Positions 155-27,711 are shown, counted from the first letter of the stretch. The stretch is 42,610 bases of DNA from Candidatus Sysuiplasma jiujiangense (GCA_019721075.1 JAHEAD010000017.1:1-42610); one strand, 5' to 3'. Made by a program: numbers and translations. Notes: generated by a model not told the origin, from the letters alone.

Positions 155-1765
155 ATGAGTCAACAAGGCAATGAACCTTCAAAGGAGCCTTCAAAGGTGC
201 AAAAGGGGGGACGGACAAAGTGGATAGCCGTAGCTGTTGTAATTGTGGTCATCGTTGCGGCTGGCGGAGTTGCAGCCTATTATCTCACTTTACCAAAGAA
301 GACTACGACCACCACCGTGACCGTAGCAGCACCTATCTATGGTTCCAGTGCTACAGTGTGGGAAAACTGGATCAATAACGCAACTGTCGCCTGGAAAGCT
401 GATCATCCGGGTGTAAAAATCAAGTTTGTCGGTCCGTTTGGTGCAAGCAATGAAGGTGATTATTATACGAAATTGGATCTTATGACGTCATCGCCTTCGA
501 CGGCACCCAGTGTGATGCTGGAAGATATGTTTTATACTGCGACTTATGCAAGTTCGCATGTTCTTCTTCCGCTCAACAGCTATGTTAACAGCAGCGTAAT
601 TTCAAATGAATTCCCTTCAGCCCTTAACCAGATGTCAATAAACAATACCTACTACGGGCTCCCTGCTCAGGTTACTGACACGCTGATATATTACAACATG
701 ACACTTTTCAAGGAAGCTGGTTTGCCGGTTCCTTGGCAACCCACCAACTGGTCGGACATAATCAGTGCTGCGGAGACAATACACTCCCTTTCCAATATGT
801 CGTCCGTCATTCCGCTGAACGCATATGAGGGCATCAAGGCCGATGAAGCATCGTCTTTTACCGGTTTTGAGGGTCTTCTCTACGGAACAGGCTGGGGACT
901 TTACAATTTCACTGCGCACAAGTGGTATGGAGAAAACCCAGGTCTGCTTCAAACGCTTGATTTCTATCAGCAGGCATTTGTCAACAAAAGCCTTGCCTCC
1001 GCCTCTTTAAGCGCTGTTCCATATGTGACAGTCGGTCAGTATCTGCAGGAAGGCAAACTTGCAATTGCGATCGATGGCAGCTGGATGTATGGATATCAGT
1101 GGGGACCAGGCGCACAGCATCCGGTAACAAATTTCCCTAGCTACATCGGTGTTGCAAAGATACCGACAGAATTCGGCCAGTCGCCAGGTTACTCTACCAT
1201 GGTCGGTGGATGGGGATGGGCCGTCTATAATCATACCTCCAATCCCTCTCTGGCTGTTTCATTCGCTGAAGCTCTGGCAAACACAACTAATTCGATTACA
1301 ATAAATCTTCCGGGCAGTGCTCTTGCAGGAGGTCTTCCGACAACAAAGACTGCAGTAAACAATCCTCTTTTCGCCAAACTCATGCCAACCGATCCGTCGC
1401 TGGATGCGTTTTACACCAACCTTCTCCAGTACGGTAATTACAGGCCACCCGTTGCGGGATACCCAAAAGTTTCATACCAGCTCGATGTAGCGATGTCCGC
1501 AGTAGTCCATTCTACAGCATCACCAGCCGCAGCTCTGTCTGCCTATAACAGCGCTTTGATATCCACTTTCGGCTCGTCGGATGTTCAGGCAATTTCATCT
1601 GTTGCCGGCGTCTCTGTCGCCCACAACATTGTAAATTTAAACGGCATTCAGGTTGTTTCAGACTTTGGCCTCAGCGGCACTTCACACTACTCTTCTCTGC
1701 TGTCCTACGGTTTTATGGAGCAATCTTTAAGTGAACTGTCCGCCGTTCCTCTAAGCAGACTCTGA
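155..1765 (+). CDS. Sugar ABC transporter substrate-binding protein with N-terminal membrane anchor
   Basis: Basic N-region, hydrophobic stretch (WIAVAVVIVVIVAAGGVAAYYL) and Thr linker, then family-1 SBP motifs (YGLP..TDT.IYYN..LFKEAGL, G.LAIAIDGSW, GGWGWAV). ATG155 preferred over GTG122 because TTAAATA lies at 115-121. Confidence 0.92.
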   Translation: MSQQGNEPSKEPSKVQKGGRTKWIAVAVVIVVIVAAGGVAAYYLTLPKKTTTTTVTVAAPIYGSSATVWENWINNATVAWKADHPGVKIKFVGPFGASNEGDYYTKLDLMTSSPSTAPSVMLEDMFYTATYASSHVLLPLNSYVNSSVISNEFPSALNQMSINNTYYGLPAQVTDTLIYYNMTLFKEAGLPVPWQPTNWSDIISAAETIHSLSNMSSVIPLNAYEGIKADEASSFTGFEGLLYGTGWGLYNFTAHKWYGENPGLLQTLDFYQQAFVNKSLASASLSAVPYVTVGQYLQEGKLAIAIDGSWMYGYQWGPGAQHPVTNFPSYIGVAKIPTEFGQSPGYSTMVGGWGWAVYNHTSNPSLAVSFAEALANTTNSITINLPGSALAGGLPTTKTAVNNPLFAKLMPTDPSLDAFYTNLLQYGNYRPPVAGYPKVSYQLDVAMSAVVHSTASPAAALSAYNSALISTFGSSDVQAISSVAGVSVAHNIVNLNGIQVVSDFGLSGTSHYSSLLSYGFMEQSLSELSAVPLSRL

Positions 1766-23354: not shown

Positions 23355-23705
23355 TTGTCTTCGGGAGAAAGTTCGGGCAGTCCGCAGCCGGCCCAGAGCC
23401 ATGCGACCATCGAGAGTGAAGTTGCCACGATGATAGAAACAGCAACCCATACGACTATAATAGTTGCAATAGTTCTCTTCGGCCTGGTTCTGGATTTCAT
23501 TGCACAGATCATAATCGTCGTTTCGTCCGGACCCGGGACATCGGGATATTCGGCGGGACTTGTGCTTTCCATATTCGGAAATTTCATCATACTGGCGATA
23601 CTCTTCATTGCCGGAATACTCAAGAGGGATGCGACTGACTATGTCAGGATAGGCTACCTCGTGGCAGCCGGCCTGGTGTTCATAGCCACGATGAGGCTTA
23701 TCTGA
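23355..23705 (+). CDS. Small membrane protein with three TM segments
   Basis: Three hydrophobic segments; TTTATATA at about 23313-23320 upstream. Confidence 0.7.
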   Translation: MSSGESSGSPQPAQSHATIESEVATMIETATHTTIIVAIVLFGLVLDFIAQIIIVVSSGPGTSGYSAGLVLSIFGNFIILAILFIAGILKRDATDYVRIGYLVAAGLVFIATMRLI

Positions 23706-23883
23706 ATCACTGTGCATGGGCTGCTCAGCGCAGCCGCTCCCTTGCTTCCTGTACGATGGTCTATCTGTAATTCGGCAGCCGTCGATGAATTGATTGACAA
23801 TATTTAAATACAAACAGTTCGTAGAATTAATACTGCGGTTCTGTATCCATGTACGCAGTTTGTAGCCCACCAGGAGTGTTTTA

Positions 23884-24315
23884 ATGCCGGCAGCGAAAAC
23901 CAGTGATTCGTTCAGGGCAAGGACACTGACCGTCGACCATCTGAGTCTGGCTATAAGGAACAGCATAGACAGGGAGGATATGCCTGCCGAGGAGGCCATG
24001 TCGCTTGCCCAGCATGTGATGAATTTCTTCGGCTACAGCGAACGGATCATAGACAACATGCTGGAACCTGAGGACAGGGATGCTTTTTACATGCTTGAGG
24101 ACAGCGGCATCCTGACGACCGAGAGGGAGGAAACGACGCTCTATGACGGCAGGGAATGGCGTATCCACTACTGGCTCTTCCAGAAGGAAAGGATATGGGA
24201 GCTTATCAACGGCATCGAGGGAGAGGATGTTTCCGAAACGAGCGACAACTCCGTTTACGACGATGTGCCGGAAGATGTCTGGGACATGCTAAAACAGACA
24301 CACAGCCGCAGATAG
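23884..24315 (+). CDS. DUF6015-like conserved Thermoplasmata protein; putative winged helix with acidic tail
   Basis: NFFGY..RIIDN.LE.EDRD.FYMLED.G.L.TEREET.LYDGREWRIHYW pattern recognised from memory; GGAGTG RBS; TTTAAATA at about 23803-23810. Confidence 0.75.
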   Translation: MPAAKTSDSFRARTLTVDHLSLAIRNSIDREDMPAEEAMSLAQHVMNFFGYSERIIDNMLEPEDRDAFYMLEDSGILTTEREETTLYDGREWRIHYWLFQKERIWELINGIEGEDVSETSDNSVYDDVPEDVWDMLKQTHSRR

Positions 24316-24371
24316 TGCCGCCGCCTGCCTTTCAGCCAACCCTTCAATAGTTTTTTAACCTGCAGCCGGGA

Positions 24372-26339
24372 ATGGGATTGTCCGGCAGAGACTGGAAACA
24401 CATGGAAGAGGAAGAAAACGGTGAGGGGCGCAGGGAAACCGGCGGAAGCTTTTTCCCCTACAGCCCGAGAAGGGGACAGATGCGCATAATGAAAGCTGTC
24501 TTTGAGTGCATCACAGCGTCACGCCATCTTGTCGTCGAGAGTCCGACGGGAAGCGGCAAGACTGCGAGCGTCCTTTCGGCAGTGATCGACAGCAGCGGTG
24601 AAAAAAAAATACTCTATCTCACGCGAACGAATTCGCAACAGCGCCAGGTGATGGATGAATTGCGCAGGATATCCTCCAGGAAGAGGATATTCGGGCTGGC
24701 GGTGCAGGGAAGAAACAGCAGCTGTCTACTTGCGAGAGACGACGGGGAGATAGGTTCAGGCAGCGCCGAGGAGCTGTCGTCGTACTGCAACTACCTCAAG
24801 GAGAAGACGAGGAACGGAATGGACGGATGCCGCTACTATCGCAGACTGCTTGATTCGGATCAGCATGAAATCATAGAGTGGCTCAGGGATGAAATGCCTG
24901 ACGCAGAGGCAGTCATAAAATGGGCCGGGGAAAGGAGTGTCTGCCCGTATGAGCTTTCGAAGTCGTTCCTTGCCGAAGCAGATATTGTCATGGCGCCGTA
25001 CATCTACTTCTTCGATCCGTTCATAAGGAGGAGGCTCTTCGAATGGATGGGCGTCCAGCCCAGGGACATCATACTCATACTGGACGAGGCGCACAACCTC
25101 CCCGATTACCTGAGGGAGGTCCAGAGCATCAGATTCGGGGTGAGGGCCGCACAGGGGATGAAAACGGAGGCGGAAGAGTTCGGCGACCCCGAAATAATTC
25201 CGGGCGTGAGCGTCAGGGATCTTTCAGAAGTTGTGGAGGATGCCATAAGGGCCATAGCCGAGGATTTTGTGCTCGACGATGACGGCCTGGTCCCGGAAGA
25301 CGAGTTTGAAACACAGATAATGGAGGAACTTGGCGTCAATTCCAGCTCCTTCCACACCATATCCACCATACTTTCGAACCAGGGGGATATCGTCAGGGAC
25401 GCTAAGCTGAAACAGGGGAGGCTTCCCAGGTCGTATATCCGCTCATTCAGCGATTTTCTCCGCTTCTGGACTGAAATCGAGCCGCAGCACTATGTCAAGC
25501 TCGTCAACGGGGGGGAAACACCCTCCCTGGAAGCGTACTGTCTCGACCCTGCCATAGCCGCTGCGCCGGTAATGGATACACACGCGAGCATTCACATGTC
25601 CGGGACGCTCGGCAAACTCGAGGACTACAGGACGCTACTCCAGCTTCCGGAAGACACTGTGCTGCTGTCCGTCCCTTCCGACTTTCCGGTATCGAACAGG
25701 AGGCTTGTCTATGTGGACGACATAACCACAAGATACGAAATACTGGTAAGGGACGCAGGCATGCTGGCCGCCATATGCGGCAGAATTGCCGGTATCTGCA
25801 ACGCTGTCAGAAGAAATACGATGGTGTTTCTGCCTTCGTTCGGGATGCTCGATTCACTCCTGTCGCTCAACATTGAGAAGAGGATAAACGGGAACGTAAT
25901 CGTGGAAAGGAAGGAGATGCGGCAGGAAGAACTCATGAACGCCGTGGATCGTTTCAAGCATGCGCCCGGTTCCGTATTCCTGTCGGTCATCGGCGGAAGG
26001 ATTTCGGAAGGACTTGATTTTCCCGACAGGACACTTGAGATGGTCATCATCGTTGGCATCCCGTACCCGAAACCGACTGCCAGGCAGAGAGCGCTTGTCA
26101 ACTACTACGACATACTGTACGGCAAGGGATGGGACTACGCAGTCAGGGGGCCGGCACTCAGAAGGCTGCTTCAGGCTGCCGGCCGCATGATAAGGAGCGA
26201 GACCGACAGGGGCATTGCCATCGTCCTTGACAAGAGACTTTCGTATTTTTCAGGCGTGGATGCGGAACGGGTAGATGACGCGGCCGGCGCAGCAGTGAGC
26301 TTCTTTTCCTGCCCGCCGGAGGATATCTCAAAGCGGTGA
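24372..26339 (+). CDS. xpd: XPD/Rad3-family 5'-3' Fe-S DNA helicase
   Basis: FPY..R.GQ Q-motif, ESPTGSGKT, four Fe-S Cys (SSCLL, SYCNY, GCRYY, VCPYE), LDEAHNL, MSGTL, SEGLDF, QAAGRMIRS..D.G. Confidence 0.93.
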   Translation: MGLSGRDWKHMEEEENGEGRRETGGSFFPYSPRRGQMRIMKAVFECITASRHLVVESPTGSGKTASVLSAVIDSSGEKKILYLTRTNSQQRQVMDELRRISSRKRIFGLAVQGRNSSCLLARDDGEIGSGSAEELSSYCNYLKEKTRNGMDGCRYYRRLLDSDQHEIIEWLRDEMPDAEAVIKWAGERSVCPYELSKSFLAEADIVMAPYIYFFDPFIRRRLFEWMGVQPRDIILILDEAHNLPDYLREVQSIRFGVRAAQGMKTEAEEFGDPEIIPGVSVRDLSEVVEDAIRAIAEDFVLDDDGLVPEDEFETQIMEELGVNSSSFHTISTILSNQGDIVRDAKLKQGRLPRSYIRSFSDFLRFWTEIEPQHYVKLVNGGETPSLEAYCLDPAIAAAPVMDTHASIHMSGTLGKLEDYRTLLQLPEDTVLLSVPSDFPVSNRRLVYVDDITTRYEILVRDAGMLAAICGRIAGICNAVRRNTMVFLPSFGMLDSLLSLNIEKRINGNVIVERKEMRQEELMNAVDRFKHAPGSVFLSVIGGRISEGLDFPDRTLEMVIIVGIPYPKPTARQRALVNYYDILYGKGWDYAVRGPALRRLLQAAGRMIRSETDRGIAIVLDKRLSYFSGVDAERVDDAAGAAVSFFSCPPEDISKR

Positions 26340-26419: not shown

Positions 26420-26992
26420 TTGGCTGCCGTGGATTTGCTCTCATCAATAGCCGACGCGGTATGGTTCTTCCTTCCGGCCATGCTGCCGAATACGGGTGCA
26501 GCAATATTCGGCGGAGGTAAACCGATAGACATGGGGAGGATGTGGAGAGGAAACAGACTGCTAGGAGACGGAAAGACCTGGCGTGGTCTTTTCACGGGCA
26601 TTCTCTCCGGGGTGCTGCTCGGCTACCTCGAGAGTCTGATCGGTGCTTTCATCGGCGGACCGGTTTCGGCGGTTTACAGGATTTCGCCTTACATACTGCC
26701 CGTGCTCCTCTCGCTTTCCGCCGGCTCGATGCTCGGCGACATATGCGGCGCGTTTGTAAAAAGGAGGATGGGGCTCGAAAAGGGCGCGAGCGTCCCAATC
26801 CTGGACCAGTACGATTTTGCCGCAGGCGCCTTTCTCCTTGCACTGCTTGTATCGGCAGGCAGCGTGATGCGTTTCCTCATCGACGGTTATGCGCTTGCGG
26901 GTTTTGCGGTTGCGCTGATAATAATTTATCCGCTGCACAGAATAATCAACTACATCGGATACAGGAGAGGGCTGAAGAGCGTTCCCTGGTAA
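26420..26992 (+). CDS. carS: CDP-archaeol synthase
   Basis: LPAM.PN..A, PID.G, RLLGDGKTWRG, GD...AFVKRR.G..KG...PILDQYDF, K.VPW. Confidence 0.93.
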   Translation: MAAVDLLSSIADAVWFFLPAMLPNTGAAIFGGGKPIDMGRMWRGNRLLGDGKTWRGLFTGILSGVLLGYLESLIGAFIGGPVSAVYRISPYILPVLLSLSAGSMLGDICGAFVKRRMGLEKGASVPILDQYDFAAGAFLLALLVSAGSVMRFLIDGYALAGFAVALIIIYPLHRIINYIGYRRGLKSVPW

Positions 26993-27031
26993 GCATTTTA
27001 CTATGATTGCAGCATTGCATGGGCTGATTGA

Positions 27032-27547
27032 ATGGAACTGATGCAAAAACTGATTGAATCGGGCGCGCTGATGTTCGGGGAATTCAGGCTGACTTCCGGC
27101 GCAACAAGCAGCTACTACGTCAATATCAAGAAAGCATACACGCAGCCTGCCGTGCTCAGAATGATTGCCGGTGCGATGGCACCGCATGTTCAGGGCAGCA
27201 GGGTCGCCGGAATGGAGCTTGGAGCAATACCCATCGTTGTCGCGGTCTCACTTGAGACAGGGAAGCCTTTCTCAATGATCAGGAAGGAGGGCAGGGAACA
27301 CGGCACGAAAAGCCTGATCGAGGGGGAAATAGCCGCGGGCGAAACAGTCGACATACTGGAGGATGTCAGCACAACGGGCAGATCCATACTGAAATCAGCA
27401 GACCAGGTCAGGGATGCCGGCGGAAGGGTGGAGCGTGCGATAGTGGTTGTGGACAGGGGAGAGGGGGCGGAGGAACTTCTGAAGGCAGAGAGAATAAGAC
27501 TTGTGCCTCTCATCGACGCGCAGACGCTCCTGAAAGGGGGAAAATAA
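27032..27547 (+). CDS. pyrE: Orotate phosphoribosyltransferase
   Basis: FGEF.LTSG..S.YY, RKE...HG, LEDV.TTG.S PRPP motif, VVDR.EG. Confidence 0.95.
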   Translation: MELMQKLIESGALMFGEFRLTSGATSSYYVNIKKAYTQPAVLRMIAGAMAPHVQGSRVAGMELGAIPIVVAVSLETGKPFSMIRKEGREHGTKSLIEGEIAAGETVDILEDVSTTGRSILKSADQVRDAGGRVERAIVVVDRGEGAEELLKAERIRLVPLIDAQTLLKGGK

Positions 27548-27675: not shown

Positions 27676-27711
27676 TCACCATTAGCATTGAATTACCGGA
27701 CGAGATTGGAC

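Follow-up and report, generated by a model that had tools for sequence, protein, structure and literature searches.

How do the RNA polymerase clamp and the DNA open in archaea without the initiation factor TFE? Class Thermoplasmata is reported, in excerpts of PMC4495717 and PMC7289017, to lack both TFE-alpha and TFE-beta, and is cited there as the one archaeal group in which clamp and DNA opening must proceed without TFE. The question is raised anew by a locus of Candidatus Sysuiplasma jiujiangense (GCA_019721075.1, JAHEAD010000017.1:1-42610; this whole analysed stretch of 42,610 nucleotides is called the window), where the gene at 23884..24315 encodes a small protein of the DUF6015 family (PF19479). 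An earlier examination of the DNA without database searches, referred to here as the sequence-only reading, proposed that the protein may be a divergent TFE/TFIIE-alpha, either the missing initiation factor or a regulator derived from TFE. The TFE-like fold is supported by our analysis; the idea of a diverged TFE orthologue is not, since canonical TFE-alpha and DUF6015 occur together in 21 of 121 sampled Thermoplasmatota genomes. We therefore present DUF6015 as a candidate, namely a TFE-like extended winged-helix factor without Zn ribbon that can be tested as missing or replacement adaptor in transcription or repair. A search of open-access literature brought up no paper mentioning DUF6015 by name, nor one that connects Thermoplasmatota with such a factor.

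The open reading frame (ORF) is genuine and its relatives are found far beyond chance. Its product matches PF19479 over residues 15-103 (profile positions 3-90 of 140) with 104.4 bits and E 8.6e-30, the gathering threshold being 27 bits, which confirms the label given to it previously. All 43 aligned relatives match PF19479 as well; NCBIfam models provide no name for the window protein. The core (residues 63-108) and acidic tail (112-134) quoted in the sequence-only reading are found exactly in the translation. The protein is acidic (isoelectric point, pI, 4.44), with 32 aspartates and glutamates versus 15 lysines and arginines, and its cysteine count is zero, as had been claimed. It is organized as follows.

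23884..24315, plus strand: DUF6015 gene, ATG start, 143 amino acids, acidic, Cys-free, stop codon within the coordinates
23920..24219, plus strand: extended winged-helix domain, residues 13-112, predicted from the AF2 model and structural matches
24220..24252, plus strand: acidic linker of low model confidence, residues 113-123, predicted local distance difference test (pLDDT) below 50
24256..24309, plus strand: C-terminal motif Y125-x3-P129-x3-W133 with predicted helix 130-142, delimited by family conservation, model pLDDT 55-67

The AF2 model has mean pLDDT of 78, rising to 81-91 in the blocks from residue 11 to 110. It comprises helices 17-27 and 35-49, a strand at 54-56, a very short helix 2, a helix at 62-74, a beta hairpin 77-85/91-99 that represents the wing, a helix at 101-112, the disordered linker 113-123 and a last helix at 130-142. 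Topology of the modelled core is helix-helix-strand-helix-strand-strand-helix. As predicted, the DUF6015 core is an extended winged helix, in agreement with the fold anticipated from sequence. After residue 112 only the disordered acidic linker and one short helix follow, and together with the lack of cysteine this bears out the claim that a Zn ribbon is missing. Among the 43 relatives, 30 are also devoid of cysteine.

In a Foldseek search of the PDB, human TFIIE-alpha, yeast Tfa1 or Pyrococcus furiosus TFE-alpha occupy 11 of the first 12 rows listed. The best match is 5gpy_A (E 8e-4); only two rows have E<=1e-3, and regulators of PadR and ArsR type come next at E about 0.03. When the top 999 Foldseek chains were re-aligned with VIA, the first 12 rows were without exception taken by TFIIE-alpha, Tfa1, TFE-alpha or C82 chains (Z from 8.4 down to 6.9, alignments of 81-103 residues), headed by 7nvs_W with Z 8.4, root-mean-square deviation (rmsd) 3.1 and 89 aligned residues. 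The first generic winged helix, the DNA-binding domain of Fur, appears at rank 13 (Z 6.7, 66 aligned). P. furiosus TFE-alpha is also on top of a VIA search of 48,161 chains that is independent of Foldseek (Z 6.9 and 6.8, 92-94 aligned, 19-20% identity). Generic winged helix-turn-helix regulator families reach Z 5-6.8. A better fit to such regulators had been named as a danger to the TFE assignment; in Foldseek and the VIA re-alignment they are outranked by TFIIE-alpha, TFE-alpha and C82. Structural alignments with the TFE family are the longest and take in both the N- and the C-terminal extension, and it is this that sets the TFE family apart from generic winged helices. ESM Atlas returned no usable match.

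The best structural matches are thus the extended winged helices of TFE-alpha and TFIIE-alpha/Tfa1 (PF02002; PDB 1q1h, 6xjf/6pln, 6kf4_G, 5gpy_A, 7nvs_W). Common to them and DUF6015 is a winged helix extended by an additional N-terminal helix and by a helix after the wing. DUF6015 further shares with TFE-alpha the R..(F/L)Y.L pattern in helix 3 and W...(Y/F)W in the wing, as well as an acidic surface atypical of DNA readers. Median pI of the DUF6015 family is 4.7, that of the winged-helix core of the window protein 4.4, and helix 3 is acidic, unlike in DNA-reading regulators. There are also differences. DUF6015 has neither Zn ribbon nor a helical linker leading to one, carrying an acidic linker and short Y..P...W helix instead; its helix 2 is very short in the model; it lies below the threshold of every TFE model and co-occurs with canonical TFE-alpha. 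The first extended winged helix of the RNA polymerase III subunit C82/RPC3 (hRPC62; 7z1o_O, 6eu2_O, 6f40_O) aligns with DUF6015 too (Z 7.6-7.2, rmsd 2.5-3.2, 81-82 residues). C82 is described in an excerpt of PMC5814912 as a clamp-anchored, TFIIE-related module. It is a stable subunit of the eukaryotic polymerase with four winged helices and a coiled coil, in contrast to the single domain and 143 amino acids of DUF6015.

We wondered if relationship to TFE can be traced in sequences as well. In a scan against all Pfam families, PF02002 (TFIIE_alpha) was matched at E<=1 by 16 of the 43 DUF6015 members, all below threshold and at best with E 3.9e-4. S10_plectin follows with 5/43, and none of the 43 match MarR, ArsR, TrmB or similar regulator families at E<=1. 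The sole PF02002 match at E<=1e-3 in the window genome is a second DUF6015 paralogue (20.2-20.7 bits; cut-off 22.9 bits). Comparison of the DUF6015 alignment with 27 Thermoplasmatota TFE-alpha sequences by hhalign gave 100 columns in winged-helix register (score 24.3, P 0.0057), and with 24 TFE-alpha sequences E 0.036 over 97 columns; two control alignments of TrmB/MarR type gave P 0.51 and 0.28 over 20-27 columns. The best non-self matches of the DUF6015 hidden Markov model (HMM) among 16,094 genome ORFs and 94 TFEs are TFEs. In profile alignments R65, F68, Y69, L71, W92 and W97 of DUF6015 fall on the invariant or near-invariant TFE residues R56, L59, Y60, L62, W80 and W85, so the line-up of motifs put forward in the sequence-only reading is recovered at six positions. 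Weak as they are, these sequence signals favour TFE over generic regulators.

Across the DUF6015 alignment, F49, G50, D57, R65, F68, W92, Y96 and W97 are invariant. The linker varies in length and sequence and the tail as a whole (113-143) contains 9 acidic versus 3 basic residues. Y125 and W133 are kept in at least 90% of the 43 sequences, and the complete C-terminal pattern, which reads VYDDVPEDVW in the window, is present in 38 of them. It is retained in divergent paralogues and in genomes with canonical TFE, and no other feature of the family seems to persist as well.

According to an excerpt of Jun et al. 2020 (PMC7704642), the extended winged helix of Thermococcus kodakarensis TFE-alpha touches the clamp coiled-coil via Y55, F65, W75 and Y78, with further contacts by R51, R52, D59, K66, R67 and R81, and the Zn ribbon binds the stalk subunit RpoE, so that TFE bridges clamp and stalk. 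These ten positions were mapped by aligning the DUF6015 profile HMM with the T. kodakarensis chain, an alignment that is itself weak (E 0.34). Six of the ten are the same or similar in DUF6015: R51, Y55, D59, R67 and W75 correspond to R65, Y69, D73, R81 and W92, respectively, and Y78 is represented by the similar H95. The kept positions are suggestive, giving a hint of clamp docking and no more.

Next, distribution of DUF6015 was compared with that of canonical TFE. PF19479 was detected in 298 of 301 evenly drawn Thermoplasmatota genomes, or 213 of 215 when high-quality genomes are considered, and in none of 14 control genomes; the copy number is 1-4 per genome. DUF6015 is a core, phylum-wide protein of Thermoplasmatota. 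At E<=1e-3 it has 2864 relatives in 90% clusters, or 572 representatives at 50% identity. Most of them bear hypothetical names in databases; several are called phasin, one is assigned to ArsR (P0096) and one (P0083) is labelled "transcription initiation factor IIE alpha subunit". Titles of the best 80 loci in species representatives all refer to Thermoplasmata, Methanomassiliicoccales, Methanomethylophilaceae or Proteinoplasmatales.

PF02002 searches of the window genome and 18 others of its class, complemented by TIGR00373 in the window genome, turned up no canonical TFE in any of these 19 genomes. In the 18 others the best PF02002 match has E 2.5e-5, and the one that was read is a MarR_2/TrmB protein. 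Absence of TFE from Thermoplasmata, stated in the sequence-only reading as a point in need of checking, is thus both in print (in the above excerpts) and apparent in these genomes. The 21 TFE-bearing genomes all lie outside the window's class; 19 have PF02002 matches with E<=1.3e-13 and two (G006 and G048) were confirmed by reading. Canonical TFE-alpha of the phylum is 170-220 amino acids long and consists of an extended winged helix and Cys/His ribbon. G006 possesses two copies in tandem. Representative loci are given below.

L004, 1315..1851, minus strand: canonical TFE-alpha
L005, 1321..1980, minus strand: canonical TFE-alpha
L130, 253..900 and 941..1597, minus strand: canonical TFE-alpha
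L132, 327..854, plus strand: canonical TFE-alpha

The statement that Thermoplasmata lack TFE is hence true of the class and not of the phylum. DUF6015 and canonical TFE do not exclude each other, and a co-occurrence that the sequence-only reading itself had listed as counting against its proposal is thus observed. In TFE-bearing genomes DUF6015 is equally conserved, its core …RIIDNVLEPEDRQLFY.LEE.GLLTTEREETTLYDGREWRTHYW… and C-terminal VY..LPEDVW being kept (tblastn). Given that it accompanies canonical TFE-alpha and is no less conserved there, DUF6015 is not simply a diverged TFE orthologue. It is an old TFE-like paralogue or a separate family, not TFE in disguise, and it is older than TFE loss or at least independent of it. 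The phyletic picture is refined accordingly: canonical TFE-alpha exists in several classes other than Thermoplasmata and coexists there with DUF6015, so TFE loss occurred against the background of an already existing TFE-like paralogue. DUF6015 may even have made TFE dispensable.

We propose the following mechanism. DUF6015 would be an ancient TFE-like paralogue that existed beside canonical TFE-alpha and survived the loss of TFE in class Thermoplasmata and several other lineages. It would serve as a protein-protein adaptor and not as a reader of DNA sequence. Its patch of R65, Y69, W92 and H95/Y96 may dock on the tip of the RNA polymerase clamp coiled-coil, in the way the extended winged helix of TFE-alpha does, and the C-terminal motif may tether a second site, for which the RNA polymerase stalk (in place of the Zn ribbon) and the XPD helicase encoded by the adjoining gene are candidates. 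In TFE-less lineages DUF6015 would then supply at least part of the help that TFE gives to the open complex. Taken together, docking by the aromatic/arginine patch, a second tether and TFE-like assistance in DNA opening form a tentative model, which we consider quite possible, if somewhat short of probable. Its value is that a conserved, phylum-wide TFE-like extended winged-helix protein makes TFE-less opening accessible to experiment, through clamp binding and stimulation of DNA melting.

Several observations weigh against a TFE-like role. No DUF6015-TFE sequence comparison is significant alone. The window protein does not match PF02002 even at E<=10, and no TFE model reaches its threshold on it (PF02002, NCBIfam; TIGR00373 has no match in the genome). 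The hhalign probability of the DUF6015-TFE alignment is just 1.4-6.5%, and TFE profiles are closer to generic winged-helix controls (P 3.3e-4 and 2.7e-5) than to DUF6015. When the Thermoplasmatota TFE HMM was run on the window genome, a generic winged-helix ORF came first (14.9 bits) and the DUF6015 paralogue second (14.3 bits), with the window copy outside the 15 matches listed. PF02002 itself scores proteins of TrmB/MarR type (L124, L125, L127, L128, L129, L131) with 24-29 bits, above its cut-off. As for structure, all VIA Z scores are 8.4 or lower, and according to the tool Z below about 8 can mean a common arrangement; in the search of 48,161 chains TFE ties within 1 Z with Fur (6.8) and ArsR (6.5). 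Four of the ten clamp-contact positions known from the PMC7704642 excerpt differ, two of them by charge reversal: R52 and K66 are opposed by D66 and E80, F65 by T79 and R81 by L98. DUF6015 has no Zn ribbon, so the clamp-to-stalk bridge on which the TFE mechanism relies is not possible. All 21 TFE-bearing genomes also carry DUF6015 at separate loci (20 of 21 at E<=5e-18); since the two co-occur, its function is independent of TFE absence and may be unrelated to it. Finally, gene order ties DUF6015 to XPD and not to RNA polymerase genes. Complex prediction of DUF6015 with residues 1-345 of Rpo1N, which was run with no controls, scored 0.28 against a mark of 0.32 and is evidence neither way.

The tie to XPD concerns the gene neighbourhood. 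Along the window, ABC transporter genes are followed by a 116-amino-acid ORF, DUF6015, XPD, CarS, phosphoribosyltransferase, rpoH, rpoB and rpoA'.

23355-23705, plus strand: hydrophobic ORF of 116 amino acids without Pfam match, just 5' of DUF6015
24372..26339, plus strand: gene for XPD/Rad3-type helicase with DEAD_2, HBB and Helicase_C_2 domains, separated from DUF6015 by a 56-nucleotide spacer
26420..27547, plus strand: CarS (CDP-archaeol synthase) and phosphoribosyltransferase genes, identified by Pfam matches

The rpoH gene starts at 27688, 3.37 kb 3' of DUF6015 on the same strand, and is followed by rpoB and rpoA'. The co-oriented RNA polymerase operon some 3.4 kb away, to which the sequence-only reading drew attention, is thus real in the window and is not conserved elsewhere. 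As a conserved trait this linkage was rejected, rpoH or rpoB being found within about 7 kb of DUF6015 in 0 of 20 related loci.

Of 20 evenly drawn loci, 9, from several GTDB families, have XPD as the next gene downstream in the same orientation. Among the 80 close named loci, which were found with an alignment of 12 sequences and are close kin rather than independent cases, 77 are testable; the XPD start is no more than 400 nucleotides downstream in 43 of the 77, and 7 others have it at a distance of up to about 1 kb. The pair occurs in further genomes, including TFE-bearing G058 and G018. It was not seen in 5 genomes checked from families f3, f4 and f5, where both genes are present far apart. 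XPD is the only recurrent neighbour of DUF6015, across at least two classes, and the pairing is not universal. In the 11 of 20 loci without adjacent XPD, neighbours are varied housekeeping genes; deoxyhypusine synthase, TiaS, ABCE1, Cbf5 and FtsY are listed among them, several being translation-related.

This arrangement suggests another explanation, that DUF6015 is an accessory subunit or regulator of XPD in DNA repair or unwinding, outside transcription initiation. Either the winged helix or the acidic Y..P...W tail would dock on XPD, and likeness to TFE would reflect shared ancestry or fold only. Beside the recurrent adjacency just described, including two genomes with canonical TFE, it can be invoked that the DUF6015 and XPD ORFs abut in L026 and that XPD-type DEAD_2 helicases are present in 116 of 121 genomes of the phylum. 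However, more than half of the evenly drawn loci (11/20) and the 5 genomes from f3, f4 and f5 do not have the pair, and DUF6015 is also encoded by G009 and G010 (93% and 95% complete), where a DEAD_2 match was not found. Moreover, the two proteins differ in conservation. Window-type DUF6015 is 48-74% identical across families, compared with 35-44% for the neighbouring XPD and 42-45% for CarS and phosphoribosyltransferase; being far more conserved within the phylum than its own gene neighbours also distinguishes DUF6015 from TFE-alpha. We are not aware of any comparable accessory protein for archaeal XPD. On balance we find the explanation unlikely, though serious enough to be kept in mind. To our knowledge, the cellular role of archaeal XPD is unclear, and the recurrent operon-like pairing with DUF6015 offers it a first candidate partner.

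Alternatively, DUF6015 might be a lineage-specific winged helix with no specific relation to TFE, its wing motif and extensions being convergent, and it might serve, for example, in ribosome function or translation, chromatin or replication. Indeed, no sequence link to TFE reaches significance, Fur and ArsR tie with TFE in the structural search independent of Foldseek, and loci without adjacent XPD place DUF6015 among general housekeeping genes, of which several are related to translation. The wing motif is moreover not peculiar to TFE. eS10 is a eukaryotic ribosomal protein, and its family (S10_plectin, PF03501) shares with DUF6015 a local W-x-x-Y-Y-W-x-L wing motif followed by a helix. The W..YW motif brings eS10 up in the PDB profile search (E 0.035-0.17) and lies behind the S10_plectin matches of 5/43 members. 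In that search nothing was below E 0.029, the top row being an unrelated "Protein C" (8bjw_A), and a single-sequence PDB search with the window protein gave no match at E<=10. The eS10 match is limited to about 36-54 residues, however, and eS10 is missing from the 50 rows listed by each structural search (Foldseek and both VIA searches). TFE/TFIIE comes first by three independent measures (Foldseek, VIA re-alignment and sub-threshold Pfam matches), provides the longest alignments with both extensions covered, and has invariant residues that coincide with those of DUF6015 at six positions. Lineage-specific origin of this sort strikes us as rather unlikely.

The proposed clamp adaptor can also be formulated more boldly. 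DUF6015 would be the working TFE of TFE-less Thermoplasmatota, with its extended winged helix on the clamp and its acidic C-terminal motif recruiting the XPD of the adjoining gene. This would constitute an archaeal coupling of transcription initiation (or transcription-coupled repair) to XPD, resembling that of TFIIE and TFIIH and being older than or parallel to the eukaryotic arrangement. We regard this version as a long shot. Acidic docking tails are familiar from other systems: the acidic C-terminus of TFIIE-alpha binds the PH domain of the TFIIH subunit p62, and bacterial SSB has an acidic C-terminal docking tail with D-D-D-I-P-F tip. DUF6015 resembles them, by analogy only, in its disordered acidic stretch, its short end motif with proline and aromatic residues, and the position of its gene beside that of a TFIIH-type helicase.

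That DUF6015 is an ordinary sequence-specific winged helix-turn-helix transcription regulator, for which the fold and the ArsR family name of one relative (P0096) might be quoted, is very improbable given its acidity (core pI 4.4), the lack of matches to MarR, ArsR, TrmB or other regulator families at E<=1 in all 43 members, and near-universal presence with about 50-70% identity across the phylum, unlike local regulators.

Several minor observations concern the family. The second paralogue of the window genome (which is 97.2% complete) has 124 amino acids and is 37% identical to the window copy. None of 150 representatives is closer to it than to the window copy.

Contig C55, 54597-54860 (locus L003, 1408..1782), minus strand: second DUF6015 paralogue with C-terminal VYDELPLDAW, situated between a phosphoglycerate-mutase-like gene and another gene

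Divergent paralogues with 30-35% identity (L036, L037, L040 and L043, from genomes G058, G007 and G029) have lost W92 and kept VY..LP..(I/A/V)W; two of them stand in tandem on contig C122 of G007. Some database entries are 340-860 amino acids long, with DUF6015 at the C-terminus (P0141, P0172, P0173, P0178, P0160, P0198, P0208 and others). Scanning of 16 long forms (342-864 amino acids) revealed no Pfam domain above threshold in their N-terminal extensions and no fusion with a TFE-type Zn ribbon; sub-threshold matches were obtained in 4 of the 16, two of HTH type, one to HMG_box/Clr5 and one to FtsX_ECD. The long entries might reflect genuine fusion, or else genes called too long in GC-rich genomes. 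Regarding PF02002, it also matches Thermotoga and Lactococcus controls. Because it scores small TrmB/MarR-type proteins above its cut-off, short annotations based on PF02002 alone need checking.

Two further elements near the gene were read from the sequence.

23803..23810, plus strand: TATA-like TTTAAATA, 74 nucleotides 5' of the ATG, possible promoter element
24351..24356, plus strand: T6 run in the DUF6015-XPD spacer, possible archaeal terminator or leaky boundary

Contigs from RNA libraries of one metatranscriptome study cover 23792-24130 and 24160-24339 with 0 mismatches. This fits expression and is no proof of it, because DNA can occur in such libraries. In two runs no RNA contig covered the flanks 23694-23787 and 24352-24742, and contigs cannot mark transcript ends. 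Contig cover begins already at 23792, upstream of TATA-like TTTAAATA.

Other observations relate to the neighbourhood. The closest relatives of the window Rpo1N carry Methanomassiliicoccales names. The order DUF6015-XPD-CarS-phosphoribosyltransferase is kept in L018, L020 and L022 and in most close loci that have XPD, which are Methanomassiliicoccales-like relatives. In some loci (e.g. L052, L063, L071, L121) XPD is missing and CarS and phosphoribosyltransferase are present. Many genomes (e.g. G002, G014, G035, G101, G106) have two XPD-type (DEAD_2) genes, only one of which adjoins DUF6015. The upstream ORF of 116 amino acids recurs in 4 of the 80 close loci (L044, L045, L069, L102; tblastn). 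In one genome (L021, 4528..7397, minus strand) the genes after DUF6015 encode ABCE1/RLI and an ERCC4 (XPF-type) nuclease, another neighbour of repair type.

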